NCBI GenBank assembly: GCA_965243395.1
Contig: CBDEUS010000002.1
Coordinates: forward strand, 128,001-192,000
DNA: 64,000 bases
Origin: Gammaproteobacteria bacterium
Lineage (GTDB): Bacteria; Pseudomonadota; Gammaproteobacteria; UBA4575
Direction of reading: 5' to 3'
Shown: positions 6,630 to 32,110 of the stretch, one piece after another
How positions within the stretch are numbered: position 1 is the first letter of the stretch
Layout of the letters: each line of letters begins with the position of its first letter
Notes under the pieces: model-generated
Told to the model about the DNA's origin: nothing
Databases searched by the model: none
The model's input: the letters and a program-made list of their open reading frames with translations, nothing else
Translations under genes and position numbers: made by a program

Positions 6630-7643
6630 TTAGTCAGATTCTAGGTTTTTTCTGTAGTTTCCTGGGGACATCCCAGTAATTTCACGAAATGCCGAGTAGA
6701 AGTTGGACTGGGACTTAAACCCGTTTGCTAAGCCTACAGAAAGTACTGATGCATTAGGCTCATTGGTTAGCATATTTTTAGCCTCAGTAACGCGTCTTTC
6801 TCTTATGAATCGAGGAAATCCACAGTCATATTGTGTATTGATTAATTCAGATAATTGATGACTATTAATATCGAGCATTTCTGCAAGCATGCTTAAACTT
6901 AGGTTCTCATTTTGATAAACCTTGTCATCATTCATAAGTTTTTCTAAAGAAGCACGCACAGATTCAACATTGATGCCTCCTAAAGTAGATTTTGCGTAGG
7001 CAGCTTCCGTAATTTCAACAATGTCACTTAGCAATTCAGGAAAGATAATTACCGATGCTGTAACTAATAACATTGCAATCCCTATTGAAGAGGCATATGC
7101 GCCAAAAAAGATTGTGTGGTTTATATAAGGCACAGATAAACCGAGTATCAAAGCTAACAAAGCCATCAACGCAAACAACAAACCAAAGAATATTTCAAAT
7201 TTGAAACGACTACTCTGAGGGCGTAATTGGAAAATAATTCTTGCAATCCAAAATGTATATCCTGTTCCAATTAAAAAAGCGATTACCGGAATTATTTTTA
7301 CAGGAAGAAATAAACCTATAGCGACTGGCACAAAGTGAAGAATATGATAGATGCTTAGCTTCGATTCCGGGAATAAAACTACTCGACTGAAAAAATAAAA
7401 CGTCATTGGAACAAAAAGCAATAAATATAAATATCCACGATTATTGAGTAAATCAGTATCGTTGGAAAAATATAGATAATGCCAAAATTGCAAACCAGAA
7501 AGAGAAATCAGCAATGCAACACAAGACAACTTGCTGATGAAGTTCTTCCTAATATTTGGGAGAAAAAATAAATATGAAAAAAGAAGAATAACTGCGCTGA
7601 ATATAGAAAACCCAGCTATCAATTGTACAAATGTAGATACCAT
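6630..7643 (-). CDS. membrane-anchored AraC-family regulator
   Basis: Several N-terminal TMs; C-terminal LSMLAEML...GFKSQSNFYSAFREITGMSP AraC HTH. Confidence 0.9.
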   Translation of the reverse strand: MVSTFVQLIAGFSIFSAVILLFSYLFFLPNIRKNFISKLSCVALLISLSGLQFWHYLYFSNDTDLLNNRGYLYLLLFVPMTFYFFSRVVLFPESKLSIYHILHFVPVAIGLFLPVKIIPVIAFLIGTGYTFWIARIIFQLRPQSSRFKFEIFFGLLFALMALLALILGLSVPYINHTIFFGAYASSIGIAMLLVTASVIIFPELLSDIVEITEAAYAKSTLGGINVESVRASLEKLMNDDKVYQNENLSLSMLAEMLDINSHQLSELINTQYDCGFPRFIRERRVTEAKNMLTNEPNASVLSVGLANGFKSQSNFYSAFREITGMSPGNYRKNLESD

Positions 7644-7776
7644 CTTATTGTTCTTGTGCCCCAGCTAAATATACATCTACATTCTATATGTGATTAGCCG
7701 ACATGTATTCATCGGATCAATAAATTTAAGCCAAATAAAAACAGTAGATTACGATTTATATGACTCTTGTTTGAAT

Positions 7777-7800
7777 AATATCCACCGTACTTCCACCAAA
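7777..7800 (+). repeat. putative integrase arm-type repeat, copy 2
   Basis: AATATCCACCGTACTTCCACCAAA. Confidence 0.6.
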
Positions 7801-7811
7801 GTATTGATTAT

Positions 7812-8594
7812 CTATACCCAAGTGCTATTCAAGGTATCCCTAAAATAGTTATTTAAACCCTCAGCTTCAGCCTCAGAGCTTTTTTGAGCAAATTTTGTGT
7901 CCTCTAATCGATTTAATTCAGATTCAATAAACTCATTTAGTACTGTAATCTTTTCTGAAGTATCTTTCTCAAATCCAGATTTTTTTCGCTCTAGCAAGTT
8001 ATTTATGGCACTAAGAAGCTTATTGTCATCAACTAACTTTTCTATTAGTTTGGAAAATTCAGTGGGCACCACGCCATAATCATTTTCTATCCATTGCACT
8101 GCTAATAATGGGCGAAGAACATAAAAATATTTTTTTAAACGAACTTGTTCTTTCTGCAAATGCTCTTTATATGTTCTTTTAGCCATACTTAAATAATGAT
8201 AGGCGCATGAAACTGGTGAAAAACTTTTTGGGAGTAAGTTTTGAAACCCATCAGAAAATTTTTCCTTATCTTTATAGACAATAGGAGACCCTATCCACTC
8301 AATCAAAGGTGGATTAGATTTTCGTAACAATCCGAGTGCCTTTCTCAGATCCCAACCATTTATATCAAGCAAATCATCTATAGGTAATTCGATCACATCT
8401 CTTTTGTGTTCAAGATCAATAGATAGATACCACTCAGGTGGATGTATATAAATAAAACGTACGTCAAAATCACTATCTTTAGATGCAAACCCCCACGCTC
8501 GACTACCCGATTCACAGGCATACAAAACTTGAACATTATATTCATCTTCAATTTCATCAAGCTTTTGAAGGATCTCTTCTTTTCTTTCTATCAT
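7812..8594 (-). CDS. RlaP/YcgL-type DNA polymerase beta superfamily nucleotidyltransferase (RNA-repair associated)
   Basis: YACESGSRAWGFASKDSDFDVRFIY, GWDLRKAL, KKYFYVLRP. Confidence 0.9.
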   Translation of the reverse strand: MIERKEEILQKLDEIEDEYNVQVLYACESGSRAWGFASKDSDFDVRFIYIHPPEWYLSIDLEHKRDVIELPIDDLLDINGWDLRKALGLLRKSNPPLIEWIGSPIVYKDKEKFSDGFQNLLPKSFSPVSCAYHYLSMAKRTYKEHLQKEQVRLKKYFYVLRPLLAVQWIENDYGVVPTEFSKLIEKLVDDNKLLSAINNLLERKKSGFEKDTSEKITVLNEFIESELNRLEDTKFAQKSSEAEAEGLNNYFRDTLNSTWV

Positions 8595-8602
8595 AGGTAT
8601 AT

Positions 8603-8902
8603 CTAGAAAAAAGTTTTAACAGTTAAAACTATTCCTAAGATTGGTAGCAATAAAAGCCAAATAATAAATATAGTGGCAATTAATATATTAGCTAAATACG
8701 AAGACTCCACTCCTTCGTCTTCCCAATCTTCATCTGCACAAATTACAGATACAAAATCTGAATTAAACTCAACATTAGAATGTTTATTATCAATTGCGAT
8801 ATCAATCGCATCTTTTAGTAACATTAAACCATCCTTATTGCCTGCAATATTATCTTCATATCTTTCACTGTAAATTTTTACCCAAGCTGTTTCATTATAC
8901 AT
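8603..8902 (-). CDS. small hypothetical protein with C-terminal TM helix
   Basis: 99-aa ORF tightly packed between rtcB and the nucleotidyltransferase. Confidence 0.6.
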   Translation of the reverse strand: MYNETAWVKIYSERYEDNIAGNKDGLMLLKDAIDIAIDNKHSNVEFNSDFVSVICADEDWEDEGVESSYLANILIATIFIIWLLLLPILGIVLTVKTFF

Positions 8903-8916
8903 TCAACTACTCCTAA

Positions 8917-10113
8917 CTATCCTTTTACACATACAACTTGACGCAAAGTGTGTTCAACGCTTACTAAATCATTTTGGTTTTCCATCACCACATCAATATC
9001 TTTATATGCGCCAGGAATTTCATCTAACACACCTTTGTCTTTACGACATTCAACACCAGCCGTTTGCGCTTCAATATCTTCTTCATTGAAATGGCGTTTT
9101 GCTTTACCACGACTCATACGTCGACCTGCACCATGCGAACATGAACTAAATGATTCAGGGTTACCTTTGCCACGAACAATGTAAGATTTAGCGCCCATAC
9201 TACCCGGAATAATTCCAAGCTCATCCACACCAGCACGAATCGCACCTTTGCGTGTAATGTAAACATTTTCACCAAAATGGTTTTCCATAGACACATAATT
9301 ATGATGACAATTGATGGCTTCTTTAGTGATACCAAATTTCGGTAACACTTTTTTTAATGCATCAATTATCAAGCGCATCATTTCTTTGCGATTTTCCATT
9401 GCGTAATCTTGAGCCCAGTTCACTGCATTTACATAGTCATCAAAGTGCTCTGCCCCTTCAGTAAAATATGCTAAATCTTTATCTGGCAAATTATGAATAT
9501 GCTTTTGCATATCTTTTTGTGCTAATCGAATAAAGAATTGGCCAATAATATTCCCTACTCCACGGCTACCCGAATGAAGCATAATCCATACATCATTATT
9601 TTCATCTAAACAGATTTCAATAAAATGATTCCCACCACCAAGTGTGCCTAGTTGACGCACCCAAGTTTGATAAGGCTTTTTCTGCATCTTTAAAAGTTTG
9701 GGGTGTTTTTCTAGTAAGCGATCTAAACCGTCAGATAAAGGTCGTATAGTTGAATTGCGAGCTTTATCTGACTTATGCATATCAAAACCAACAGGTATTG
9801 CAACTTCAATAGCAGTACGCACTTTGCGTAAGTTATCTGGAAGATCATTAGCATTCATTGAAAGACGCAAAGCATTCATTCCACAACCAATGTCTACACC
9901 AACCGCAGCAGGAATAATTGCACCTTTACATGGAATTACCGAACCCACAGTCGCACCTTTACCAAAGTGCACATCCGGCATCGCCGCAATATGACTATGG
10001 ATAAAAGGCAACTGTGATAGGTTGCATAGTTGCTGGTAGGCTTCGTGCTCTATGTCATCAGTATAGATTTTTACTCGCACATTACCTTTGGTAATGACTT
10101 TTTTAATTGGCAT
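8917..10113 (-). CDS. rtcB: RtcB RNA ligase
   Basis: MPDVHFGKGATVG, VGVDIGCG, GTLGGGNHFIE, HSGSRG, PGSMG, SHGAGR. Confidence 0.97.
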   Translation of the reverse strand: MPIKKVITKGNVRVKIYTDDIEHEAYQQLCNLSQLPFIHSHIAAMPDVHFGKGATVGSVIPCKGAIIPAAVGVDIGCGMNALRLSMNANDLPDNLRKVRTAIEVAIPVGFDMHKSDKARNSTIRPLSDGLDRLLEKHPKLLKMQKKPYQTWVRQLGTLGGGNHFIEICLDENNDVWIMLHSGSRGVGNIIGQFFIRLAQKDMQKHIHNLPDKDLAYFTEGAEHFDDYVNAVNWAQDYAMENRKEMMRLIIDALKKVLPKFGITKEAINCHHNYVSMENHFGENVYITRKGAIRAGVDELGIIPGSMGAKSYIVRGKGNPESFSSCSHGAGRRMSRGKAKRHFNEEDIEAQTAGVECRKDKGVLDEIPGAYKDIDVVMENQNDLVSVEHTLRQVVCVKG

Positions 10114-10125
10114 ATGTCACCCTAA

Positions 10126-10367
10126 TTAATCTCTAAAATATTCATTTCTATTAGAACCATCATGTCGCTTTTTCTTCAAGCAACAATTCTTGAAATCTAC
10201 GCCCTGATCCACATACACATGGATCATTCCGGCCGAACTTCTCGCTAAGTTCTTTATTGCCATGAACGATTCTATTTCCTCGTTTAACGTTTGTTTCTGA
10301 TGGGAATCCTTTACGACGTTTACTCATACGCTCAAAAGGATTGATCCTTATTTTTAAATTTACACAT
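10126..10367 (-). CDS. small SEC-C (Zn-knuckle) protein split over three frames by two apparent +1 frameshifts
   Basis: Not in the ORF track. SD GAGGTG precedes ATG 10367. [11 protein letters not shown] ends at TTT-TGA; the +1 frame reads [14 protein letters not shown]...[14 protein letters not shown]; a second +1 at TTT-C gives [21 protein letters not shown]. Confidence 0.75.
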
Positions 10368-10393
10368 GTTGCACCTCACATTACTAAACTAAA

Positions 10394-10780
10394 TCAGTTG
10401 TATTTTTTGCGATAGTTACTGGTAAAAGGTTGCGCAACAATTTGATAATCATCTTGATAGCGTATCCTTCCAATTTCCTCACATTTAATCATATCTACAG
10501 CAATACCTTTATTTTGTATTACAGAAAAGAGCTTCCACATAACGCGTATATGCTCTTGTGCACTAGGTTTAAACCAACACAGGCAGCGATAGTTACCGGG
10601 TATCTTCAAAATAGGAGGCACAATTAAATTTCTATCAATCCATCTAAACACATATTGAACTTCTTCATATTCATAATCAGTGAATGAATTGTTGTATTTT
10701 AGCTTGTACGCAAGATGTATTAGGCCTTGTTCATAACGTGACCTCCTGTCTTGGCACAGCCCAATAAATCGTAAGTACAT
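10394..10780 (-). CDS. hypothetical protein
   Basis: 128-aa ORF co-oriented within the RNA-repair module. Confidence 0.65.
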   Translation of the reverse strand: MYLRFIGLCQDRRSRYEQGLIHLAYKLKYNNSFTDYEYEEVQYVFRWIDRNLIVPPILKIPGNYRCLCWFKPSAQEHIRVMWKLFSVIQNKGIAVDMIKCEEIGRIRYQDDYQIVAQPFTSNYRKKYN

Positions 10781-10826
10781 TTTTAATATCCATTTATATT
10801 ATTTCTCAAATTTAATTAAATGACGC

Positions 10827-10850
10827 AGGCCCTCAAATAATAGAGGGCCT
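10827..10850. terminator. GC-rich hairpin downstream of the SPFH gene
   Basis: AGGCCCTC-N8-GAGGGCCT. No clear U tract on the minus strand, so it may be a stabilising stem. Confidence 0.45.
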
Positions 10851-10869
10851 TTGTCAGTTTATACTCACG

Positions 10870-12018
10870 CTACCCATCAACTTTGATTTGTACCGTGTCT
10901 TTTAGGATGCCATCCAAACCTCCGAAGACAGTTAGTTTGTCTACTTTGTCAGTGACTTTTTCCAACGTCTCCAACTCTTTCAAGCGCATCAAGGTTGGGT
11001 TGTCATCCATCAATTTCGCAGTGTTCAACAATGAACGTGTAGCTGCAGTTTCTTCACGTCTTTTAATGACATTTGCTTGCGCCACTTTTTCTGCTTGAAC
11101 TACTTGGTTCAAGATATCTTTCATGTCGCCTGGCAAAATGACATCTTTCACGCCAACGCTGCGAATTTCGATACCGTATTCAGATACGTTTGCTTTAACA
11201 GATTCGTAGACGTATTTGTCTAGTTCATCTTTAGTTACAAGCAATGCATCCAAAGTGCGTGTACCAATTACCTGACGAAGTGCAAATTGCATTTCGCGGT
11301 AAATGTATCCAGCAAGGTCTACCAATTCATGACGCGCTTTAATTGGGTCACGAATTTGATATTGAGCTGACAAGTTTGCACGTAGGCTAACTTTGTCTTT
11401 TGTCAAAACCTCTTGACCTTGCACTTCCATGCTTTGCATTCGCAAATCAACTTGTTCAACTATTACGTTGCGGTTGTATTTCCAGTATGCGTACAAGCCT
11501 GGTTGCAATGATTCTTTTAATTCACCATCCACAACCAATAGGCCAACATAGTTGTCTGCAACTTCTGCGATGTAAATTGAATTAATCAATTCACTTGGTA
11601 CTTGTTTCGCACGTGTGTGCACAAACTGACCCACTTTATTTGCAGGCAATGCAAAATCTTCTGCAATATTTTGCACTTCAACTGTCATTTCAACTGGACC
11701 TTTCCAAAATAATTGGCGTGTACCAGGTGCTACAACAGTGCTCAATTGGCCACGTTGATAAACCAATCCAACTTCATATGCGTCGGTTTCAACAACTTGG
11801 AAGTATTTTGTTACTATCTCAGGTTGTTCTTTTACCAAGACATCCACATATTTGTGGTTGAATTGCGCTTCCGTTACATCATAAATCTCGACTTGAATTC
11901 GGCCGAAAATATCGAAATATCGATATACGCCTGGTTCAAGCACTTTTACAATGCTTCGGTTTTTCAAGTAAATTCCTCGCTCATGCTGCGCAATAACAAT
12001 TCTTTTAAATCCGAACAT
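10870..12018 (-). CDS. SPFH/band-7 (slipin) family protein
   Basis: VDLRMQSMEVQGQEVLTKDKVSLRAN, GVKDVILPG, RREETAATRSLLNTAKLM; SD AAGGAG. Confidence 0.9.
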   Translation of the reverse strand: MFGFKRIVIAQHERGIYLKNRSIVKVLEPGVYRYFDIFGRIQVEIYDVTEAQFNHKYVDVLVKEQPEIVTKYFQVVETDAYEVGLVYQRGQLSTVVAPGTRQLFWKGPVEMTVEVQNIAEDFALPANKVGQFVHTRAKQVPSELINSIYIAEVADNYVGLLVVDGELKESLQPGLYAYWKYNRNVIVEQVDLRMQSMEVQGQEVLTKDKVSLRANLSAQYQIRDPIKARHELVDLAGYIYREMQFALRQVIGTRTLDALLVTKDELDKYVYESVKANVSEYGIEIRSVGVKDVILPGDMKDILNQVVQAEKVAQANVIKRREETAATRSLLNTAKLMDDNPTLMRLKELETLEKVTDKVDKLTVFGGLDGILKDTVQIKVDG

Positions 12019-12044
12019 AATTACTCCTTATTAAATAAAGTTTC

Positions 12045-12610
12045 GGGAAATGCTCCACATATAAATTGCGGGTAAACTCCTGTTGTAGTAACGGGTCTAA
12101 AATCTTTCGCATGTCATTGCGATACCCCAACTATCGCTTTGAACATGTTTCAGTCTCTAGACTGGTTATCACAAGCTTGTGATCACGCAGGCAATCTACA
12201 TGTTGCGACATAAAAAACTCTCAACCGTAGTTGAGCTATTTGAAATGTCGCGGGAACATTTCCCTGGTTAGTGTTTTCACACAAAATGCGGATTCGAACC
12301 GCAGGCTTTCGCCATTACCAATGAACAACGTTTAAAGTTGTCGAAAGAACAGGAATCGAACCTGCAACATTTCCGTTATCAGCGGAATGCTCTCCCTTTG
12401 AGCTATCTTTCACTGGTGTATCGGACCACTTACAACTTTGTATACACATTGCAATCACCTTTCGGCTTAGCTTTTGTGCACAGGTCTGAATTCAAGAATC
12501 AGATCCGCTAAGTAAATAAATGTCTCTCAATACTCATGAACTCAATGTTTATAAAACATCGAATTACAATTCTTTAAATACAGGTGACCTGCCCCATTGC
12601 AGGCCACCAT
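12045..12610 (-). ncRNA. unassigned large structured RNA (~570 nt) with tRNA-like domains
   Basis: ORF-free on the sense strand. 12-bp long-range helix 12253-12264/12045-12056, GNRA hairpins, two TTCGA T-arms. Ends approximate. Confidence 0.7.
12338..12412 (-). tRNA. tRNA-Ile(GAU)-like domain embedded in the structured RNA; ends in ACAA, not NCCA
   Basis: TGAAAGA TA GCTC AAAGGGA GAGC A TTCCG CTGATAA CGGAA ATGTT GCAGG TTCGATT CCTGT TCTTTCG A CAA. Confidence 0.7.
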
Positions 12611-12636
12611 TTTTCACGCCCCCTTTCTCCTAAAAT

Positions 12637-13203
12637 TTAACGTCGCTCTTTAGGACATTGTGTTTTCAAGAACGCCATTTGGTCTGCCAAAATTTTGCGG
12701 TTAGATAAAATCAATCCTTCTGCATAATTTGGCTCATATGGAATTCCTAATAATGAAATTCCTATTCTTTCTGCCTCACTAGGCATTAAGCTATCTTTAC
12801 GTGCATTACATGCACGGCATGCTGTAACCACATTCATCCATGTGTTTTTCCCACCACGTGATAGTGGAATCACATGATCGCGCGTTAAGCGATTTCGAGA
12901 ATATTGATCACCGCAATACATGCACATGTAATCATCACGTCGAAACAATCTTGCATTTGTCAGTGCAGGCACTTCACGAATGTGGTCGTCTGATCGCATC
13001 ACACCATGTGTTGCAACAATACTGTTCACATCAATAAATGAACGAGTTCTTGTTCTGCGATTTACACCACCATGAATACGAAAAGAATTTGAACCCATTT
13101 CGTAAACAACTTGTTCTCGTGCATACACTAATGCTGCATATTCCCAGTTCATCCATTCAACTGGACGCCCAGCTACGTCTAAACGCAAAATTAAATTTTC
13201 CAT
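12637..13203 (-). CDS. HNH endonuclease (McrA/HNH_5-like)
   Basis: LFRRDDYMCMYCG...TRDHVIPLSRGG...NVVTACRACNARK. Confidence 0.92.
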   Translation of the reverse strand: MENLILRLDVAGRPVEWMNWEYAALVYAREQVVYEMGSNSFRIHGGVNRRTRTRSFIDVNSIVATHGVMRSDDHIREVPALTNARLFRRDDYMCMYCGDQYSRNRLTRDHVIPLSRGGKNTWMNVVTACRACNARKDSLMPSEAERIGISLLGIPYEPNYAEGLILSNRKILADQMAFLKTQCPKERR

Positions 13204-13231
13204 TTAACTTTTCTCTTTTATAAAGTTACTG

Positions 13232-13254
13232 TTTAACAATTTGGATGATTGAAG
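13232..13254. repeat. trailer arm of a 23-bp perfect inverted repeat bracketing the tRNA array
   Basis: TTTAACAATTTGGATGATTGAAG is the exact reverse complement of 16565-16587. Confidence 0.92.
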
Positions 13255-13263
13255 AGTTTAATT

Positions 13264-13340
13264 TGGTACGCAGCCCCAGATTTGAACTGGGAATCAAGTA
13301 GGTTTGAGCTACTCAGGTCTTCCAATTGCCTCAGCTGCGC
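13264..13340 (-). tRNA. tRNA-Leu(CAA), short variable loop
   Basis: Hand-folded cloverleaf, loop CT CAA AC, 5-nt V loop, A73, encoded CCA. Confidence 0.88.
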
Positions 13341-13352
13341 AAAAATTTAATT

Positions 13353-13429
13353 TGGTATCCCTGGCAAGATTCGAACTTGCAACATTCTGGTTTTAAGTCA
13401 GATGCGTCTTCCGGTTGCGCCACAGGGAC
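13353..13429 (-). tRNA. tRNA-Leu(UAA), short variable loop
   Basis: Loop CT TAA AA, V loop ATGTT, CCA. Confidence 0.88.
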
Positions 13430-13440
13430 GTAATGTAATT

Positions 13441-13518
13441 TGGTAGCCACCCTCGGATTTGAACCGAGATGCACCATGTTCTAAGCATGGTAGGTATGCC
13501 AATTCCCGTCAGATGGCC
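13441..13518 (-). tRNA. tRNA-Leu(UAG), short variable loop
   Basis: Loop CT TAG AA, V loop TGCAT, CCA. Confidence 0.88.
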
Positions 13519-13561
13519 AAAATTTTTATTTTTATAATTTAGTTATACATAAATTATGATT

Positions 13562-13637
13562 TGGTACCCCTAGTAAGATTCGAACTCACATCAACTGATT
13601 TAGAAGATCAGTGCTTTTCCAATTAAGCTATAGAGGT
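13562..13637 (-). tRNA. tRNA-Arg(UCU)
   Basis: Loop CT TCT AA, CCA. Confidence 0.92.
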
Positions 13638-13659
13638 AAAAAACTAATTGAATTATTTT

Positions 13660-13756
13660 TGGTACCCCAACCAAGATTCGAACTTGGATCTACCACTAAT
13701 CTGGTGCGTGAATCACGGGATATAAATCCGCTGCTTTACCGTTAAGCTATTGGGGC
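13660..13756 (-). tRNA. tRNA-Ile(UAU) with a 27-nt variable region
   Basis: Loop TT TAT AT; V region GATTCACGCACCAGATTAGTGGTAGAT; CCA. Confidence 0.85.
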
Positions 13757-13765
13757 AAAATTTTT

Positions 13766-13839
13766 TGGACACTCCGCTCAGAATTGAACTGAGTCCTCAA
13801 GGGTTGCAACCTTGCGTCTTGCCGATCGACCACGGAGTG
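13766..13839 (-). tRNA. tRNA-Cys(GCA)
   Basis: Loop TT GCA AC, U73, CCA. Confidence 0.9.
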
Positions 13840-13840
13840 T

Positions 13841-13915
13841 TGGCACATCCGGAAAGATTTGAACTTTCATCTTTGGGTTTGGAGGCCAATGTTCTGCCAA
13901 TTGAACTACAGATGC
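13841..13915 (-). tRNA. tRNA-Trp(CCA)
   Basis: Loop CT CCA AA, G73, CCA. Confidence 0.9.
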
Positions 13916-13917
13916 TC

Positions 13918-13993
13918 TGGCTGGGAGTCCTGGACTCGAACCAAGATCTCAAGAGTCAAAGTCTTGCGTCTTAACCAGTTAGACGAATTCCCA
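13918..13993 (-). tRNA. tRNA-Gln(UUG)
   Basis: Loop CT TTG AC, U1-A72, G73, CCA. Confidence 0.92.
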
Positions 13994-14002
13994 TTTTTGT
14001 TT

Positions 14003-14079
14003 TGGCGCGGTTGGAAAGACTCAAACTTTCATCTTCGACTTTCGTAGAGTCGTGCTTTATCCGATTAAGCTACAACCGC
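14003..14079 (-). tRNA. tRNA-Arg(ACG)
   Basis: Loop CT ACG AA; T loop TTTGAGT; CCA. Confidence 0.9.
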
Positions 14080-14087
14080 AAAAACTT

Positions 14088-14163
14088 TGGTAGCCCGAAT
14101 CCGATTCGAACGGATAACTTTCGCTTTGTAAGAACGACACTCTGCCAATTGAGTTATCGGGCT
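14088..14163 (-). tRNA. tRNA-Val(UAC)
   Basis: Loop CT TAC AA, CCA. Confidence 0.92.
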
Positions 14164-14171
14164 AAAATTTT

Positions 14172-14243
14172 TGGTAGTTACGGTTAGAATCGAACTAACA
14201 AGTCCAGGGTTATGAGCCCTAGCCGAAGACCACTTCCGTAACT
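14172..14243 (-). tRNA. tRNA-Met(CAU), initiator-like, with a minimal D arm
   Basis: AGTTACG GAAG TGGT CTTC GG CTAGGG CTCATAA CCCTGG ACTT GTTAG TTCGATT CTAAC CGTAACT A CCA. Confidence 0.8.
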
Positions 14244-14251
14244 AAAGTATT

Positions 14252-14325
14252 TGGTGGATCCAGTAGGAGTCGAACCTACCTCTGCGGGTTAAAAGCCCGC
14301 TGCACAACCGCTATGCCATAGATCC
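14252..14325 (-). tRNA. tRNA-Lys(UUU)
   Basis: Loop CT TTT AA, CCA. Confidence 0.9.
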
Positions 14326-14326
14326 T

Positions 14327-14402
14327 TGGCACGCCTGAAAGGAGTTGAACCTTTATCTCACTGGTTCGAAGCCAGTGGCTCTTCCAATTAAGCTACAGAC
14401 GT
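14327..14402 (-). tRNA. tRNA-Arg(UCG)
   Basis: Loop CT TCG AA, CCA. Confidence 0.9.
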
Positions 14403-14404
14403 AT

Positions 14405-14495
14405 TGGCGGAGAAGAACAGATTCGAACTGTTGAATGAAAAATTTCCATCCCTCCTTTAGCAAAGGAGTGCTTTAAACCACTCAGCCACTTCTCC
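14405..14495 (-). tRNA. tRNA-Ser(GCU)
   Basis: Loop TT GCT AA, long V arm, G73, CCA. Confidence 0.92.
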
Positions 14496-14555
14496 AATTT
14501 ATAATTTGCAGCGCTTCGCGATATTTAATTTGCGAGTAATACCCACTCGCAAGCG

Positions 14556-14631
14556 TGGGGTGAACTACCGGACTCGAACCGGTATCTACCAGATTCACGT
14601 TCTGGGGCTTTGCCATTAAGCTAAGCTCACC
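14556..14631 (-). tRNA. tRNA-His(GUG), with A32/C33
   Basis: G-1:C73 pair; loop AC GTG AA; CCA. Confidence 0.9.
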
Positions 14632-14642
14632 ATAATTATTTT

Positions 14643-14734
14643 TGGCGGAAGGCGGAGGGCACGATCCCCACCAACTAAAAAGCCAGCCACCAGTTTTCAA
14701 GACTGGGACACCCCCACTGGGTGAATCACCTTCC
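14643..14734 (-). tRNA. tRNA-Ser(UGA) with a non-canonical 8/4 fold
   Basis: Acceptor GGAAGGTG/CGCCTTCC (8 bp), T stem GGGG/CCTC (4 bp), D stem CACCC/GGGTG, loop CT TGA AA, long V arm, G73. Confidence 0.8.
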
Positions 14735-14749
14735 TTATATATGTAAATT

Positions 14750-14824
14750 TGGAGCGGATAATCGGATTCGAACCGATATTTATGGTTTGGAAGACCATCA
14801 CTCTGCCAATTGAGTTATACCCGC
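14750..14824 (-). tRNA. tRNA-Gly(UCC)
   Basis: Loop CT TCC AA, U73, CCA. Confidence 0.92.
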
Positions 14825-14829
14825 AGATT

Positions 14830-14907
14830 TGGTCTGAGTGGCTGGATTCGAACCAACGACCTCTCGCTTCCAAGGCGAGTACTCTGCCCAGGCTGAGCTA
14901 CACTCAG
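14830..14907 (-). tRNA. tRNA-Pro(UGG)
   Basis: Loop CT TGG AA, C1-G72, CCA. Confidence 0.92.
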
Positions 14908-14934
14908 AGAATTAATTAAATATAAAAAATTATT

Positions 14935-15010
14935 TGGTGCATCGAGTTGGACTTGAACCAACGACCACACGATTATCGGTCGTGCGCTCTACCAACTGAG
15001 CTATCGATGC
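14935..15010 (-). tRNA. tRNA-Ile(GAU), with C33
   Basis: Loop CC GAT AA, CCA. Confidence 0.9.
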
Positions 15011-15011
15011 T

Positions 15012-15086
15012 TGGTGTTCCTGACCAGAATTGAACTGGCATCTCGAGTTTGAAAGACTCGTGACCTCACCATTAGTCGACAGGAAC
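15012..15086 (-). tRNA. tRNA-Glu(UUC)
   Basis: Loop CT TTC AA, CCA. Confidence 0.9.
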
Positions 15087-15100
15087 TAATAAAATATTTT

Positions 15101-15176
15101 TGGCGGACCCGATCGGACTCAAACCGACATCCCCTTTATCGACAGTAAAGTGCTTTATCAATTAAGCTACGAATCC
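15101..15176 (-). tRNA. tRNA-Asp(GUC)
   Basis: Loop CT GTC GA, G73; D-loop GA with T-loop TTTGA (A19-U56 compensation). Confidence 0.88.
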
Positions 15177-15185
15177 AACTTTTGT

Positions 15186-16047
15186 TTAAAGGTTGAGACT
15201 ATGCCTTTAAAAATCACTCTTTTGTTGAAGTACCTAACGCATTGCTGTGCGATAGTTGCCAACGTGTCCACATTACCCTGGTTGCTCCAGCGATTATGTT
15301 AGTGATCATGACTGCTTTTTTTAAAGTGTAGCGATTCACTTGTCGCGTTAATCTATTCAGCTATTCACTTACCGAGAACCTTGCCAGGCTCTAAACGGAG
15401 GCTATCCGAACGTGCAATGAAGTAACTAAAGTTCTTTGGCTTGCGACCGCAGAATCTTCCATGTTCCCAAGTGGGCATGGACTTAAGTCATTTTCAATTA
15501 ACACCGAGACGCGTCTTTGCGTTTCACCGTATGGTGATCTATGTGGGAGTCGAACCCACGACCTATTGATTCTAAGTCAATCGCTCTACCAATCTGAGCT
15601 AAAAGATCAGGTACTACTAAGACGTGCACGTCTCAGTTGCTTCATTATTTTTTGAATAACGAAATACAACACGCCTTTTGTCTTTCCTCTGCCGAGTACT
15701 TAACCGAATATTCGGATCATGGCTTCCACCCATTTCCCTAATAATCTGCACAACCGCACTTGTCTGCAAAACTCGTACTATGTTGTACTACCTGTTATCT
15801 CTCGTAGTACGCAATCTAGTATCACGGGTTACAGCACTACCTGTATCTTTCTCACGACCCGTATTCCCAAGTAAACCTGGTACGTCAATCGTGGTACTTC
15901 CGCGTATTGCTTGGCTACTATTGCCGATTGAATTACGACAACATGGAGACCAGGCTTGCTTGGTTTGACCTACTTTGAAAAGTGGGCGAAATACCGTAGT
16001 CGTATTCCTTTCCTATCGTTGCCGATAGTTATCGTGCCAAGCCACAT
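15186..16047 (-). ncRNA. large structured RNA, probably GOLLD
   Basis: About 860 nt inside a tRNA array with no sense ORF and many hairpins (CTATCG GCAA CGATAG; CCGAATATTCGG; GTACTAC...GTAGTAC). Size and context match GOLLD. Family call from memory; ends approximate. Confidence 0.65.
15532..15608 (-). tRNA. tRNA with Leu(UAG) anticodon on a class-I body, nested in the GOLLD-like RNA
   Basis: GATCTTT TA GCTC AGATTGGTA GAGC G ATTGA CTTAGAA TCAAT AGGTC GTGGG TTCGACT CCCAC ATAGATC A CCA. Confidence 0.85.
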
Positions 16048-16050
16048 ATT

Positions 16051-16126
16051 TGGTGGAGGATCACGGATTTGAACCGTGCGCCTTCTGTTTGCAATACAGA
16101 CGCTCTGCCAACTGAGCTAATCCCCC
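16051..16126 (-). tRNA. tRNA-Ala(UGC)
   Basis: G3:U70, loop AT TGC AA, CCA. Confidence 0.93.
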
Positions 16127-16135
16127 AAACTTATT

Positions 16136-16210
16136 TGGCTGCGACGGTTGGACTCGAACCAACATTGCTTCGCTTAACAGACGAATGTTCTACCATTGAA
16201 CTACATCGCA
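16136..16210 (-). tRNA. tRNA-Asn(GUU)
   Basis: Loop CT GTT AA, G73, CCA. Confidence 0.92.
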
Positions 16211-16218
16211 ATTATATT

Positions 16219-16295
16219 TGGTGCATCAGGATGGATTCGAACCACCATCGCGTCGGGCTTCAACCGACCGCTCTACCCATTGGAGCTACCGATGC
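16219..16295 (-). tRNA. tRNA-Phe(GAA)
   Basis: Loop TT GAA GC, CCA. Confidence 0.92.
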
Positions 16296-16304
16296 AAAAA
16301 TAAT

Positions 16305-16389
16305 TGGTGGAGAGAGATGGATTCGAACCACCACGCTAATAATTAGCACTGGGTTACAGCCAGCGTGTCTCACCAATGACTGTCTCTCC
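16305..16389 (-). tRNA. tRNA-Tyr(GUA)
   Basis: Loop CT GTA AC, V arm GCTAATTATTAGC, CCA. Confidence 0.88.
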
Positions 16390-16401
16390 TAAAGTTAAAA
16401 C

Positions 16402-16477
16402 TGGAGCTGGTGATAGGCGTCGAACCTACAACCTACTGCTTACAAAGCAGTTGCTCTGCCATTTGAGCTACACCAGC
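16402..16477 (-). tRNA. tRNA-Thr(UGU), first tRNA of the array
   Basis: Loop TT TGT AA, CCA. Confidence 0.93.
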
Positions 16478-16564
16478 AAAAAATATGGGACAGTCGCACA
16501 TGCGCACAACTCAACTTAGGAGTTGGGCATAATTTAAAAATTAAATTACGCACTGCCCCGCCTA

Positions 16565-16592
16565 CTTCAATCATCCAAATTGTTAAAGAGCT
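16565..16592 (-). promoter_or_regulatory. boxA antitermination element overlapping the leader arm of the 23-bp inverted repeat
   Basis: AGCTCTTTAACA at 16592-16581 versus rrn boxA TGCTCTTTAACA; IR arm at 16565-16587. Confidence 0.85.
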
Positions 16593-16604
16593 ACTGCCAG
16601 GACT

Positions 16605-16639
16605 AAAAAACCCCGGAAGGCGAACCTAACCGGGGTTTT
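16605..16639 (-). terminator. intrinsic terminator (attenuator) between the promoter and the tRNA array
   Basis: AAAACCCCGG TT AGG TTCG CCT T CCGGGGTTTT TT. Confidence 0.88.
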
Positions 16640-16693
16640 ATTTTGATTCCGGAAGGCTCGCAACGCGCACCCTCCGAATTAATTTGGAAGGTA

Positions 16694-16849
16694 CTACGTA
16701 ATTGGGTCCTCTAAGGTGGCCCCAATAAAATTATTTGTGCCGAGATTCGATATCTCATGCACAGCAACACACCACAAAAAACACGACGGCTTTAATAACC
16801 GCTGCATTAGTTGCGCTGAAAAACTAGTTGTATATGTACTTCTATTCAT
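16694..16849 (-). CDS. putative leader peptide (51 aa, near-leaderless)
   Basis: Below the ORF-track cut-off. MNRSTYTTSFSAQLMQRLLKPSCFLWCVAVHEISNLGTNNFIGATLEDPIT*. ATG is 10 nt after the -10 box and the stop abuts attenuator segment 1. Confidence 0.65.
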   Translation of the reverse strand: MNRSTYTTSFSAQLMQRLLKPSCFLWCVAVHEISNLGTNNFIGATLEDPIT

Positions 16850-16887
16850 AGTGCGCGAAAGTCTAATGATATGGATTTTAAAGTCAA
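16850..16887 (-). promoter_or_regulatory. stable-RNA-type sigma70 promoter of the tRNA array
   Basis: TTGACT (16887-16882), 16 bp, TAGACT (16865-16860), then GC-rich discriminator TTCGCGCAC. Confidence 0.75.
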
Positions 16888-16937
16888 GTAATATTTTACT
16901 AAGTAAAGTGTGAATTTACGCCCAATTATCGGCCAAA

Positions 16938-17591
16938 TTAATCCTCAAGGGCTGACAAAAAAGAAATCATTGCTTTACGTTGTTTTTCATTTAAAGAGAG
17001 TGATGCAGAAATTATTTCTTGAATGTCCGTTAATTGTTTTTGAAATTCTTTATTGTTCAATTCTTTAGGTGCTTCATCCAACCAACCTACTGGTTTTTTT
17101 GCTGCAACTTCAATTCCTCTTGCAAACTCATCACTCATGCTTGGAATAAATGGTGTTTTGTAATGTTGTTGAAATAATTCCCATGATACTCCTGCTGATT
17201 CACATTCTTTTTTAGAACAAACCTTATTACCAGACTTTCCACATAGGGTCTTAAAGTTTGTAAATCTAACGATTTGAAGAAATGGGTCTAAGTTTTTTAC
17301 AGGAGCAGTGCCAAATAATAACCAATTGGTGGAATATCCAGTAACTTTGCTAATACCTTCAATGATTTTTAAATTTGGGTTTTGTGGAGCCGACGTTTCG
17401 TAAAGAGAAAGAAGTTGTTTTGACACCTTTAGTCTTCTTTTTTTCAATAATTGCATCATCTCACTTGGATCAATGCCATTAACTACACGTGCAAAACGCA
17501 CCCTTGATGAAACTGTAGCTAATTCATTTTTTCGTTTTGAACTACTAGTTGATTTTTTGGAGACACGACGTTTAGATTTATTTTTTACCAT
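16938..17591 (-). CDS. XRE/Cro-CI-type HTH protein with a basic N-terminal tail
   Basis: SRVRFAR...VSKQLLSLYET...NPNLKIIEGISKVTGYSTNWLLFG. Confidence 0.7.
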   Translation of the reverse strand: MVKNKSKRRVSKKSTSSSKRKNELATVSSRVRFARVVNGIDPSEMMQLLKKRRLKVSKQLLSLYETSAPQNPNLKIIEGISKVTGYSTNWLLFGTAPVKNLDPFLQIVRFTNFKTLCGKSGNKVCSKKECESAGVSWELFQQHYKTPFIPSMSDEFARGIEVAAKKPVGWLDEAPKELNNKEFQKQLTDIQEIISASLSLNEKQRKAMISFLSALED

Positions 17592-17642
17592 TCGTTTTTC
17601 ACTTCATGTTTTCAAGCAATAATTTTAAATTCTTATTATTTT

Positions 17643-19358
17643 CTATGGTATGACGGGTACTCGCATATGCGTAGGCGTTTCTCCTCCGAAACAAATTTTT
17701 TGCATAGCACTTATTGCCTCAGTCTCATAAGGAATGGAATCTCCAGTGTTTGGGTTTCGATCAAATCTTGGGAAACTGCTGCTTGTGATATGGACCCTAA
17801 TTTGATGTCCCTTTTTGAAAACATAACTTGTAGGCCACAGTTCAATCTCAATCTTTTTCGCATTTTTACAGCTTTGTCCTTCTAATTGATACTCCGCTCT
17901 TTTTATGCCATCAGTAACGTTATAGGAACTTCCATCTTCAAATACATCCGTAATTCTAACTACAAAATCTGTATTACTTACATTTGTTTGCACATAAAGA
18001 AATGCAGATACAGGACCAGTTATTTCAGTATCTTCATTCAGCACTTCGCTTGTATAAACAAGTACATCTTTTCTCGATTCGATTTCATTTTGCAGTGCGA
18101 TCCCAGCCCGTGGACCTAAAACTACTCCACCATTTGATGGAACTGGAATATTTGGATCATAGACATAATGATCAAACCCAAATTTTTCAGGATTAGCCCA
18201 AGTTAATTTTCCCGAATGTGCTGAAGTACCCGCAGTTCCATCACTGGAAATGTATAAATTCTTAAATTGAGTCCTCGCTAATGGCCATTCGTTTTCATAT
18301 CTCCATTCATTCTTACCAAGTACAAATAATTTAATTTTTCCCAAGCCATTTTTCTCATTGTTTTGTTCTAATAATTTTTTGTCAAACCAATTTAAGGCTT
18401 CTTTGATACTTGTCTCTCTATATGTTGGTACTTTATTTAAACTAGGTATTTTTACTTCTCTTGCATGTGACCACGGACCGACTATTATTTCTCCCTGTTT
18501 TAATTGCACGAAATCATTAATTTGAGAGGGTAAAAATGGGTCAAACCAGCCAGCAAGCATTTGCACGGGGGCACTTATTGTTTTTGCTCTATCGACACCA
18601 TCAATATTAATCCAGTAGTTATTTTTAGTATTGTTTAGTACCCAGTCGTTAAAAAACTGTATGTCTTTATCAGCGCGCTCGTCTGCTTCAATTAATGGGA
18701 ACCCATCAAATCCTTTTTCCATATCCTTAATTTTAGGTTCGATGTCTTTTTTGCCACCACTTTGAAGTGACCATCTAAGTGCGCTCTCAAGAGAGAAAGC
18801 ACCGCCTGGGTAAAACATGTCATAGAAGCTAGTACTAACAATATGCAAGTGGTAAGCACTGATACTTGGATTAATTTGATCAGAGATGGCTAGCTGTGTG
18901 TATCCAAAAGCAGAACCACCCCACATGCCAAGTTGTCCATTGAACCATGGTTGCTCGTTCAACCATTGCAATGTTTCGATTCCATCACTTCTTTCATTTA
19001 TTAATGGATAGTAATCACCTTGAGATTTATAACGCCCACGTGTTCCTTGAATAACAACATTGTATCCACGAGATGCCCAGTATCTTGCGACTGATTCTGA
19101 TTTCAAACGATTCGAGAATGTATTTGTAAAAGGTATTCTTACTAAAATCGTAGGTACCGGTTTATTAACAATTGGCCTATAGACATCAGAGACAAGAGTT
19201 ATATTGTCTGATGTAATTAAACTTTTATCTTCATGTTTTACTACTTTATATTCTCTTGATCGAACTCCTTCATTCGGAAGAAATAATTCTTGTGTAATGG
19301 TTTGACAACCATATAACAGAAAAAATAACAAAAAAGAAAGATATCTAAAAAGTTTCAT
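17643..19358 (-). CDS. CocE/NonD family hydrolase (lipoprotein)
   Basis: Lipobox LYGC, QGTRGRYKSQG, GMWGGSAFG, SSSFPRFDRNPNTG. Confidence 0.9.
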   Translation of the reverse strand: MKLFRYLSFLLFFLLYGCQTITQELFLPNEGVRSREYKVVKHEDKSLITSDNITLVSDVYRPIVNKPVPTILVRIPFTNTFSNRLKSESVARYWASRGYNVVIQGTRGRYKSQGDYYPLINERSDGIETLQWLNEQPWFNGQLGMWGGSAFGYTQLAISDQINPSISAYHLHIVSTSFYDMFYPGGAFSLESALRWSLQSGGKKDIEPKIKDMEKGFDGFPLIEADERADKDIQFFNDWVLNNTKNNYWINIDGVDRAKTISAPVQMLAGWFDPFLPSQINDFVQLKQGEIIVGPWSHAREVKIPSLNKVPTYRETSIKEALNWFDKKLLEQNNEKNGLGKIKLFVLGKNEWRYENEWPLARTQFKNLYISSDGTAGTSAHSGKLTWANPEKFGFDHYVYDPNIPVPSNGGVVLGPRAGIALQNEIESRKDVLVYTSEVLNEDTEITGPVSAFLYVQTNVSNTDFVVRITDVFEDGSSYNVTDGIKRAEYQLEGQSCKNAKKIEIELWPTSYVFKKGHQIRVHITSSSFPRFDRNPNTGDSIPYETEAISAMQKICFGGETPTHMRVPVIP

Positions 19359-26857: not shown

Positions 26858-26904
26858 AATGGTGGCCAGGGGCAGAATCGAACTGCCGACACGAGGATTT
26901 TCAG
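26858..26904 (-). repeat. att site: 47-bp direct repeat of the tRNA-Phe 3' half
   Basis: AATGGTGGCCAGGGGCAGAATCGAACTGCCGACACGAGGATTTTCAG is identical to 56292-56338. Confidence 0.95.
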
Positions 26905-27088
26905 CCTGCTTCATAACTGTAGATACTCGTGCACGTTTCGTGTTTAATAGTAATTAAATCTTACACTTAAAACGTTTAATTAATTTTAAACGTGTCTAAT
27001 CGTAGCACGAAATCTTCCACCAAATGGTATGAAAAAAGTGCAAGGGTGGTGCAAAGTTCGCTACGAGGATTTTTTGGAGGATGACCAT

Positions 27089-32035: not shown

Positions 32036-32110
32036 TGGAGGCCAGGGTCGGAGTTGAACCGACGTATTACACCTTGCTGGGGGTATGCATCACCACTCTG
32101 CCACCTGGCC
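32036..32110 (-). pseudogene. tRNA-Cys-like element with an aberrant anticodon arm
   Basis: GGCCAGG TG GCA GAGTGGTGA TGC ATACC CCCAGCAA GGTGT AATAC GTCGG TTCAACT CCGAC CCTGGCC T CCA. Confidence 0.75.

Follow-up and report, generated by a model that had tools for sequence, protein, structure and literature searches.

A minus-strand cassette in the chromosome of an uncultured gammaproteobacterium joins a long array of tRNA genes to a set of RNA-repair genes, with a control region at its head. It lies in the stretch of DNA analysed here (the window, W; 64,000 nt, C2:128001-192000 of host genome G000, which comprises 2.58 Mb in two contigs at 38-39% G+C), and its features are collected in Table 1. 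We think it probable that two described modules have here been fused, under one control region, into a cassette that moves horizontally and works as proposed below; the first module would be a supernumerary L-array with a GOLLD RNA and an HNH gene, and the second an RNA-repair module made of RtcB, a Band-7 (SPFH) protein and a tRNA-like RNA. The anatomy of the cassette is conserved and recurs in other genomes, its RNA pairings covary between loci, and the cassette has moved. An original prediction, made from the sequence of the window, had interpreted the block as a mobile kit that replaces and repairs tRNAs when translation fails. All the elements that it listed are present, on the minus strand and in the order given, from 17591 to 7812. 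Its interpretation holds in part: recurrence, mobility, the anatomy of the leader and a link between the two halves in a second genome (G346) speak for it, whereas two genes counted as members of the kit do not belong to the shared core and much of the design was already in print.

Comparisons were made with fetched loci (L-numbers) and with genomes from a sample of 401 genomes of the host's class (G-numbers). RNA genes were identified with ARAGORN and Rfam and proteins with Pfam, NCBIfam, PADLOC and PHROGs; RNAfold, RNAalifold and RNAduplex were used for folding, and homologues of the second structured RNA were collected with nhmmer. Pfam recognised the HNH, SPFH, SEC-C motif, RtcB (6e-131) and RlaP (3e-96) proteins. 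No family was found in PADLOC or NCBIfam for the 128-aa, 99-aa and helix-turn-helix (HTH) proteins, nor for the 480-aa and 316-aa proteins of related loci described below, and in PADLOC no cassette protein matched a system-specific anti-phage model, the only matches being generic ones to the HNH and SEC-C domains. No RtcA or RtcR domain was detected in a Pfam search of the proteins from 6630 to 19358, and the locus is thus not an RtcBA/RtcR operon of the E. coli type.

Table 1. Features of the cassette, in the order in which they would be transcribed
Feature	Position in window	Strand	Remarks
HTH protein, 217 aa	16938..17591	-	weak HTH_3 match; PHROG transcription-regulator match 7e-5
Promoter-like site TTGACT-16-TAGACT	16860..16887	-	9/12 consensus positions
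Leader open reading frame (ORF), 51 codons	16694..16849	-	all 20 amino acids; ends DPIT-stop; equivalents in 8 loci
Attenuator	16605..16693	-	segment 1 16691-16686; segment 2 16678-16670; segment 3 16657-16649; terminator hairpin and T-run 16639-16605
boxA-like 12-mer GCTCTTTAACAA	16580..16591	-	occurs once in the 2.58-Mb genome vs 0.57 expected
Long-range helix, 5' arm	16565..16595	-	overlaps boxA; 31 nt, 90% complementary to 13224-13254
Array of 27 tRNA genes	13264..16477	-	ARAGORN 24, Rfam 3
GOLLD RNA	15190..16045	-	variable 5' domain, embedded tRNA-Leu(UAG) 15532-15608, conserved 3' domain
Long-range helix, 3' arm	13224..13254	-	after last tRNA; ends 19 nt before HNH start codon
HNH endonuclease, 188 aa	12637..13203	-	PF14279 1.7e-16; PHROG 16726 full-length 1.5e-23
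Structured RNA, ~600 nt	12020..12636	-	upstream of SPFH; tRNA-like element 12340-12412 and second T-arm-like hairpin
SPFH/Band-7 protein, 382 aa	10870..12018	-	PF01145 8e-28
128-aa ORF in variable slot	10394..10780	-	no family in Pfam, NCBIfam, PADLOC, PHROGs; unique to W
SEC-C gene	10129..10327	-	+1 shift at TTT-C (10195-10192) gives 66 aa with complete CxC...CC motif
RtcB RNA ligase	8917..10113	-	PF01139 6e-131; PHROG 1075 2.5e-151; the genome's only RtcB
99-aa ORF	8603..8902	-	hydrophobic C-terminal stretch (read from sequence); no family; outside shared core
RlaP nucleotidyltransferase	7812..8594	-	PF10127 2.9e-96; outside shared core

A general feature of the cassette is that its parts recur together while their order changes. 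Relatives of the HNH protein were numerous (481 in genome contigs and 400 in metagenome contigs), and nine of the 160 HNH loci retained adjoin tRNA arrays (L001-L004, L007, L201, L202, L204 and L211), the others being mostly from Lysobacterales, at about 50% identity and with no adjoining array. The gene set does occur beside arrays elsewhere: RtcB, SPFH, SEC-C or HTH genes adjoin related arrays or HNH genes in eleven loci (L001, L002, L004, L202, L204, L211, L208, L020, L050, G346 and G238), and the order is reshuffled in L002, L202, L204, L211, L208, L020 and L050. L202 carries an array, HNH, the structured RNA, SPFH (71%), a 316-aa protein, SEC-C (87%) and RtcB (85%). L204 has an array, HNH, the RNA and SPFH; L002 has RtcB, tRNAs, the RNA, SPFH, further tRNAs and HNH; and L211 has an array, HNH, RtcB and the 316-aa protein. 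HNH is accompanied by a distant RtcB in L004, by SPFH in L208 and by RtcB in L020 and L050.

That the cassette is mobile, as had been predicted, follows from its comparison with the closest relative, L001. The two are 92-93% identical over 17558-8921, a stretch that begins within the HTH gene and runs up to where rtcB ends, except for a swapped slot at 10816-10377, whereas the flanks of L001 match the host genome at 72-73% only, and elsewhere in the genome. The shared core thus measures 8.6 kb, and an L001-type variant with identical borders is carried by a DNA sequencing run (X5). The cassette and its immediate surroundings include no integrase, capsid or conjugation gene; the closest integrase (27029-28324) is that of a neighbouring island, and the HNH protein is the only candidate for moving the cassette.

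The control region is what heads the cassette. Homologues of the HTH protein (27-96% identity) adjoin the promoter of an array or of repair genes in six further loci (L001, L004, L204, L211, G346 and G238), in which they are either co-oriented or divergent, and the HTH protein is probably a repressor of the cassette promoter. Palindromes were seen by eye close to the -35 box. The promoter match in the window is not significant alone, because sites of the 9/12 grade are no commoner than chance (22 found vs 30 expected); good -35/-10 pairs were read from the sequence in the same place in L004, L007, L204, L211, G346 and G238. Since the promoter-like site lies 10 nt upstream of the leader ATG, the mRNA is predicted to be nearly leaderless. 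The same series, consisting of a good promoter, an ORF of 49-60 codons, three short segments, a GC hairpin followed by 5-9 T and a boxA, was found in eight loci (W, L001, L004, L007, L204, L211, G346 and G238), with the stop codon of the ORF placed 0-3 nt upstream of segment 1. The leader peptides start with MN, MK or MQ and end with EPMT, EPMR, DPIT, GMT or AVT, and the leader of L001 differs from that of the window by an in-frame insertion of 21 nt. All 20 amino acids are present in the leaders of W, L001, L004 and G238, 19 in those of L204 and L211, and 18 in those of L007 and G346; the chance of the all-20 property ranges from 0.025 to 0.54 per leader, being 0.025-0.05 for W, L001 and L004 and unremarkable for L007, L204 and L211.

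Between the leader stop and boxA, segments 1 and 3 are direct repeats, each complementary to segment 2, and in the window they are followed by a terminator with a GC stem and T6, itself preceded by hairpins. The segments covary between loci, CCTTCC/GGAGGG types standing against CCTTTCGCG/CGCGAAAGG types with matching changes; a MAFFT alignment of the leaders was out of register with the segments. When the transcript up to the terminator loop was folded with no ribosome, RNAfold gave pairing of segment 1 with 2 and of segment 3 with the terminator arm, and when the stop codon and 12 further bases were masked, segments 2 and 3 paired and the terminator arm was free. We expressed this switch as the number of pairs that the 5' arm of the terminator forms with upstream RNA in the ribosome-free and in the stop-masked state, and counted the shuffled leaders, 400 for each locus, that reached it. 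The values were 11/0 for the window (reached by 16/400 shuffles), 14/0 for L004 (0/400), 10/0 for L007 (7/400), 8/0 for L211 (3/400) and 13/3 for G238 (25/400), so that in this masking model the switch exceeds the shuffles in five of the seven independent leaders. In several divergent loci the leader therefore shows the anatomy expected of a terminator switch that senses ribosomes. By this topology, complete translation of the leader would lead to termination, and delay or absence of ribosomes to read-through.

Motif scans extended the comparison. A T-run followed by boxA was found in 8 of the 401 class genomes: three of these have the leader type described here (G000, G346 and G238), three are rRNA operon (rrn) spacers and two are other sites. 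When viral contigs were scanned for the boxA motif, only L165 (10 tRNAs) and L128 (4 tRNAs) among at least 120 loci listed had tRNA clusters, and the remaining listed loci look like phage hairpin-boxA sites. L165 carries, at about 2148-2500 of its minus strand, a 47-codon ORF with an MNF start, a hairpin with T-run, boxA, and a tRNA-Met followed by nine tRNAs; its leader may be a simpler relative of the cassette leader design.

Downstream of the terminator, the cassette is laid out like an rRNA operon. The 12-mer at 16591-16580, which we take to be the core of the E. coli rrn boxA (the E. coli consensus), stands upstream of the array or of the repair module in seven loci (W, L001, L004, L007, L204, G346 and G238) and is degenerate in L211. 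It overlaps the 5' arm of a long-range helix whose 3' arm follows the last tRNA. RNAduplex gave a dG of -46.9 kcal/mol for the helix in the window, a value reached by none of 500 random windows, and an equivalent helix of different sequence was found in all six loci in which both ends could be compared (W, L001, L004, L007, L204 and L211), with dG from -34 to -53 kcal/mol. In each of the six, complementary strands with compensatory changes flank the mature RNAs, as in a leader-trailer helix. The helix ends 1-27 nt upstream of the HNH start codon, which leaves no room for a separate HNH promoter. By analogy, boxA and helix would represent the plan of an rRNA operon, here drawn round 27 tRNAs and GOLLD, with roles for Nus factors and RNase III. 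The host itself has a single rRNA operon; its leader (G000:C2:1157070-1157400) has two promoter-like sites and a hairpin, and its variant boxA, GTTTTTTAACAA, is unlike the cassette 12-mer.

The array answers to the description of an L-array: 27 co-oriented, close-set and non-periodic genes in 3.2 kb, supernumerary and foreign. The host has a full single-copy set outside it (35 tRNAs and the tmRNA), and the genes of this set share only 54-72% identity with array genes that have a matching anticodon. The predicted count of 27 is reached by ARAGORN and Rfam together. The encoded CCA, which had been part of the same claim, is not distinctive because it is also encoded in 37/37 of the other host tRNA and tmRNA genes. 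The genes added by Rfam are 13663-13756 (55.3 bits), 14175-14243 (30.8 bits, anticodon CAU) and 14647-14734, of which the last is Ser-UGA according to ARAGORN at a relaxed threshold. The claim that all 20 amino acids are served also stands, in that the array holds a complete minimal decoding set whose anticodons mostly have U34 in four-codon boxes, with the caveat that Met is represented by the atypical 69-nt CAU gene. The anticodon of 13663-13756 is ambiguous owing to an 18-nt insert in the anticodon loop or adjacent to it; its counterpart in L211 is Ile(UAU), 96 nt, according to ARAGORN. All four 'Leu' genes of the array (13264-13518 and 15532-15608) measure 77-78 nt, vs 82-87 nt for the Leu genes of the host, and therefore have no long variable arm; this is equally true of the array Leu genes in L002-L004. 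Gene order is kept in W, L001 and L004, the last with an HNH protein of 58% identity, and reads Thr-Tyr-Phe-Asn-Ala-[GOLLD]-Asp...Gln-Trp-Cys-Arg-Leu-Leu-HNH.

The GOLLD-like RNA that had been noticed inside the array is a genuine match to the family. Positions 15190-15677 align with model positions 1-416 of RF02032 at 153.5 bits, above the cut-off of 150, and in the same array position L001, L007 and L004 score 155.8, 133.7 and 126 bits, respectively. GOLLD in Mycobacterium tRNA arrays is reportedly the subject of work by Morgado et al. (2020). GOLLD has been reported from phages and prophages and in tRNA islands (Kretsch et al. 2025, PMC12286853). Metatranscriptome contigs at least 99% identical to the window cover 15204-16033, and with it GOLLD in its entirety, in three marine runs of one study (X10, X12 and X20), contigs from which strand, ends and level are not readable and in which DNA carry-over is possible.

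Behind the HNH gene comes the repair module, and with it a second structured RNA, as had been proposed; in RNAalifold it has 164 predicted pairs, 51 of them with compensatory change. Homologues of this RNA were found in L001, L201, L202, L204 and L236 and, in part, in L002 and G346. SPFH follows it wherever downstream sequence exists, the contig of L236 ending before that point. The cloverleaf-like element within it varies in its anticodon (GAU, UUU, AAU and UUA), and Rfam contains no family for the RNA except tRNA. According to bioRxiv 10.1101/312249, Burroughs and Aravind predicted a 'band-7-associated tRNA' beside RtcB and a Band-7 protein, with which we equate the embedded tRNA-like element; the larger RNA of about 600 nt round it may be new. 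RtcB, the Band-7 protein and the tRNA-like RNA are encoded together in the cassette, in keeping with the RtcB/Band-7/b7a-tRNA system as defined at second hand (10.1101/312249).

The SPFH protein has homologues of 45-98% identity in L001, L002, L202, L204, L208 and G346, and an SPFH gene has been reported inside the rtc locus of Pseudomonas. The slot between SPFH and SEC-C/RtcB is variable and takes up proteins that are unrelated to one another. It is occupied in L001 by a 480-aa protein (12409-13851), a relative of which lies 3' of HNH in L003, and in L202 (4742-5692) and G346 (L315 6695-7642) by a 316-aa family with a member 3' of RtcB in L211. Relatives of an 84-aa ORF that lies downstream of RtcB in G346 (L315 5245-5499) occur between tRNA genes within the arrays of L201 (177-335) and L204 (8816-8944). 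RlaP, which adds 1-2 nucleotides to damaged RNA 3' ends (bioRxiv 10.64898/2025.12.29.696909) and is located in the rtc operons of Pseudomonas, had been predicted to be part of the kit together with the small transmembrane protein upstream of it. That membership is not supported: both genes are absent from the near-identical L001, and neither RlaP (by tblastn) nor the 99-aa ORF was found in the other fetched loci.

A single regulated unit made of both halves is best supported by G346, in which the leader heads the repair genes with almost no array. The order there is a divergent HTH gene, a promoter, a 49-codon leader, the segments, terminator and boxA, a stretch that by eye resembles the 5' domain of GOLLD, one tRNA-Leu(UAG), SEC-C, the tRNA-like RNA, SPFH (56%), a 315-aa protein (39% to that of L202) and RtcB (71%).

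The SEC-C gene had been described as frameshifted, and so it is: its 55-codon ORF breaks the zinc motif after CxCGSGRRF, and the shifted 66-aa product aligns end to end with unshifted homologues of 64-73 aa. The shift site is common to all seven lineages of which the DNA was read (W, L001, L202, G336, G346, G299 and G016), in the form UUU-UAA, with a 0-frame stop, in G336, G346 and G299 and as UUU-CAA in G016. Among the 401 class genomes there are six strong SEC-C matches (E <=2e-19), none of which continues in one frame past residue 54; the DNA was read for five of them. Two database proteins stop exactly at ...RRF. W, L001 and L202 have kept the +1 frame, with mostly synonymous changes (9/16 changed codons between W and L202, by our own count), and the 0-frame tails differ. 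Thus a conserved site is followed by purifying selection on the downstream +1 frame, as in programmed frameshifting. As to a Shine-Dalgarno-like stimulator, no conserved purine-rich element was found at a fixed distance, only G016 having a GGGAGG 3 nt upstream. The SEC-C gene is on this sequence pattern a good candidate for programmed +1 frameshifting, and no paper on such a frameshift was found in the literature search.

From these elements a working model can be assembled, in which the polarity of the switch, the involvement of Nus factors and RNase III, co-transcription, and the functions of the proteins beyond family membership are predicted. A strong promoter, probably repressed by the adjacent HTH protein, would start a near-leaderless transcript for a 51-codon peptide. 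A ribosome that reaches the stop codon in step with RNA polymerase would cover segment 1, whereupon segments 2 and 3 would pair, the terminator would form and transcription would end. With ribosomes late or absent, segments 1 and 2 would pair, segment 3 would hold the 5' arm of the terminator, and the polymerase would read on. Induction by translation failure is what this modelled topology suggests, and possible triggers are tRNAs that lack their amino acid or have been cleaved, inhibitors of the ribosome or a shortage of ribosomes. boxA would then load a Nus-type antitermination complex for the 3.3-kb untranslated array, and the boxA-proximal RNA and the 3' flank of the array would form a helix like that of an rRNA operon, the processing of which would free the 27 tRNAs and GOLLD and leave the HNH mRNA, perhaps with the repair genes, downstream. 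RtcB would rejoin cut RNAs, with the Band-7 protein and the 600-nt tRNA-like RNA as cofactors. Full-length SEC-C protein would be made only after a +1 slip at UUU, and slipping would rise if decoding or termination at the next codon is slow.

A bolder version of the model is possible but, on balance, doubtful. The cassette would in that case be a self-contained and transferable 'translation emergency unit' on the plan of an rRNA operon, with the leader and the SEC-C slip as two independent sensors of ribosome status. It is conceivable, with the same reserve, that the leader samples nearly every amino acid, so that any failure to finish it opens transcription. Tentatively again, boxA and helix might deliver a full minimal set of tRNAs together with the GOLLD nanocage RNA. 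The RtcB/Band-7 module might bring its own 600-nt tRNA-bearing RNA and the SEC-C slip might report slow decoding or termination, possibilities on which we place no greater weight.

Several observations weigh against a fused and translation-controlled cassette. Some of them concern the control region. The switch is not clean in L204 (13/11, reached by 90/400 shuffles) or G346 (10/5, 63/400), and with an earlier metric, the fraction of the terminator arm that is paired, the observed value was matched by 19-91 of 300 shuffles; the count of switched partners was adopted because that metric did not separate real from shuffled leaders. The minimum-energy fold of the whole leader contains the terminator in all seven loci folded, and the proposed read-through would therefore depend on kinetic trapping. 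The presence of all 20 amino acids in a leader is weakly unusual and suggestive only, and the array of Anabaena is controlled by promoter repeats and not by a leader (PMC8421152). Others concern the unity of the cassette. A hairpin resembling a terminator lies directly 3' of HNH (12608-12583), with a T-run in L204 and L201, and the repair genes may for that reason be a second transcription unit. L007 has an array with no repair genes within 10 kb on each side, G346 has repair genes without an array, and G336 has SEC-C alone. The RNA contigs hold GOLLD alone, the rest of 7500-17700 (10.2 kb) being uncovered, which does not show that it is silent.

The best surviving alternative, although in our view rather unlikely, is that the cassette serves mobile elements and not the host, as anti-defence cargo that mends and replaces tRNAs cut by host anticodon nucleases in the course of transfer or infection, with the leader sensing this attack and not stress in general. 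The proteins have close phage relatives in PHROGs (RtcB 2.5e-151, RlaP 4e-83 and HNH 1.5e-23), the phage contig L165 places a short ORF, hairpin and boxA before 10 tRNAs, tRNA arrays have been termed putative anti-defence systems (PMC12803027), and GOLLD is known from phages and prophages (PMC12286853). However, the cassette is found in the chromosomes of at least two distantly related genomes, with no integrase, capsid or conjugation gene in or beside it, and the mechanism overlaps, and is compatible, with the one we prefer. It could also be that two independent modules sit side by side on a mobile element, are transcribed apart and are not coupled to translation status, which we consider unlikely. 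The separate occurrences of array (L007) and repair parts (G346 and G336), the terminator-like hairpin of L204 and L201, the variable gene order and the GOLLD-only RNA contigs are what one would expect of such neighbours. Against this, linkage recurs in at least eight loci despite the reshuffling, the same HTH/leader/terminator/boxA region stands ahead of the array in the window and of the repair genes in G346, no site between 13203 and 12020 resembles a promoter beyond chance, and in Anabaena rtcB is co-regulated with the L-array even when unlinked (PMC8421152). Finally, a leader of the rRNA-operon kind, with a boxB-like hairpin and boxA serving processing and antitermination, constitutive read-through and an incidental ORF, is improbable: the single rrn leader of the host does have a hairpin whose T-run runs into a boxA-like TTTTTTAACAA, phage contigs often carry hairpin-boxA pairs and the terminator is favoured in equilibrium folds irrespective of the ribosome, but an ORF of 49-60 codons is kept in eight loci of very different G+C with its stop abutting segment 1 and its peptide ends conserved, the L001 indel is in frame, segments 1 and 3 are duplicated, covarying complements of segment 2, and a GC stem followed by 5-9 T is a canonical terminator.

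The attenuators of the trp and his operons and the ribosome-stalling leaders of antibiotic-resistance genes combine a short ORF with hairpins that exclude one another and with an intrinsic terminator. A fused cassette under leader control shares this outline, having a short ORF, alternative hairpins and an intrinsic terminator as well, but, unlike the trp and his attenuators, its leader has no run of one regulatory codon and samples 18-20 amino acids, and its cargo consists of tRNAs. Whereas trp super-attenuates without translation, the five-segment topology modelled here predicts read-through.

The first module resembles the cyanobacterial L-array in being a long, non-periodic, horizontally acquired and supernumerary array with an adjacent HNH gene, and in the presence of rtcB near related arrays; the link to translational stress is that of Anabaena PCC 7120, in which antibiotics that target the ribosome induce the L-array (the trn operon) together with its HNH gene and rtcB (Santamaria-Gomez et al. 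2021, PMC8421152). The Anabaena array has 9-nt direct repeats over the -10 box and transcription start site where the cassette has a leader ORF, terminator switch, boxA and helix, and the text of that paper makes no mention of a leader, attenuation, boxA, antitermination or RNase III; GOLLD inside the array and physically attached repair genes are further differences. The GOLLD RNA is like those of phage and Mycobacterium arrays (RF02032) in its match above the model cut-off, its tRNA in the linker and its location inside a tRNA island (PMC12286853). It differs in belonging to the chromosome of an uncultured gammaproteobacterium and not to a phage, and in its fixed spot in a conserved array order, within a boxA-led and helix-bracketed unit. 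With the RtcB/Band-7/b7a-tRNA system (10.1101/312249) the cassette shares RtcB beside Band-7 and a tRNA-like non-coding RNA upstream of Band-7, but here the tRNA-like element is one domain of an RNA of about 600 nt, and a frameshift-dependent SEC-C gene and the fusion to array and leader are added, some of which Burroughs and Aravind (2016) may already describe. As in an rRNA operon leader, boxA lies upstream of and overlaps the 5' strand of the helix, the 3' strand of which comes after the mature RNAs (PMC10250234, PMC4807359); the cassette helix differs in bracketing 27 tRNAs and GOLLD and not 16S rRNA, and in being preceded by a leader that is predicted to be translated and an intrinsic terminator. 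The SEC-C site recalls the +1 frameshift of prfB (PMC12421855) in that a slippery codon precedes an in-frame stop (in three SEC-C lineages) and the +1 frame encodes the conserved protein, but the family is another, the slippery codon is UUU, the next 0-frame codon is UAA or CAA, and no conserved stimulator resembling a Shine-Dalgarno sequence was seen, except possibly in G016.

Three parts of the cassette are thus already described, namely an L-array with HNH and rtcB under translational stress, GOLLD in tRNA islands, and RtcB with Band-7 and a tRNA-like RNA. The control layers, which the original prediction did not recognise from known systems, fare differently: the combination of array, HNH and rtcB and the repair module are in print, but the leader switch and the boxA/helix arrangement were not found in the literature. 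A search that did not extend to Burroughs and Aravind (2016) and Morgado (2020), either of which may describe the SEC-C gene or array leaders, found no report of the leader-peptide terminator switch, of boxA with a bracketing helix, of the 600-nt RNA, of the SEC-C frameshift or of a physical fusion of both modules under one leader. L-arrays are widespread, but work on the only one studied in depth, that of Anabaena, left open how translational stress is sensed. The proposed terminator switch offers a directly testable mechanism in another lineage. An rRNA-like boxA and helix round tRNAs would extend Nus-dependent RNA chaperoning beyond rRNA. For GOLLD and the Band-7-associated RNAs, the functions of which are unknown, fixed positions beside RtcB in a regulated mobile unit give an experimental context, and the conserved +1 frameshift of a small protein with a zinc motif would be one more of the rare recoding cases in bacteria.

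Some observations concern the surroundings of the cassette. Copies of a tRNA-Phe 3' end flank the region: an intact gene at 56294-56369, a 47-nt copy (100%) at 26858-26904 and, outside the window and 6.5 kb to its left, a 51-nt copy (94%; G000:C2:121442-121492). The three copies bound two adjacent intervals of about 30 kb, of which only the right-hand one has an integrase (27029-28324); next to the third fragment, the 12 kb that precede the window contain none. A tRNA-Phe fragment is likewise present in L001, where it lies 2 kb upstream of the cassette. Immediately to the left of the window, L311 8482-11623 (G000:C2:124482-127623) encodes a flotillin-type SPFH protein, a YqiJ-type membrane protein and PspA/IM30, and represents a second, unrelated SPFH locus. 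Inside the integrase-bearing island, a tRNA-like gene at 32036-32110 on the minus strand has a four-base anticodon (cagc) according to ARAGORN and matches the Rfam tRNA model at 45.9 bits.

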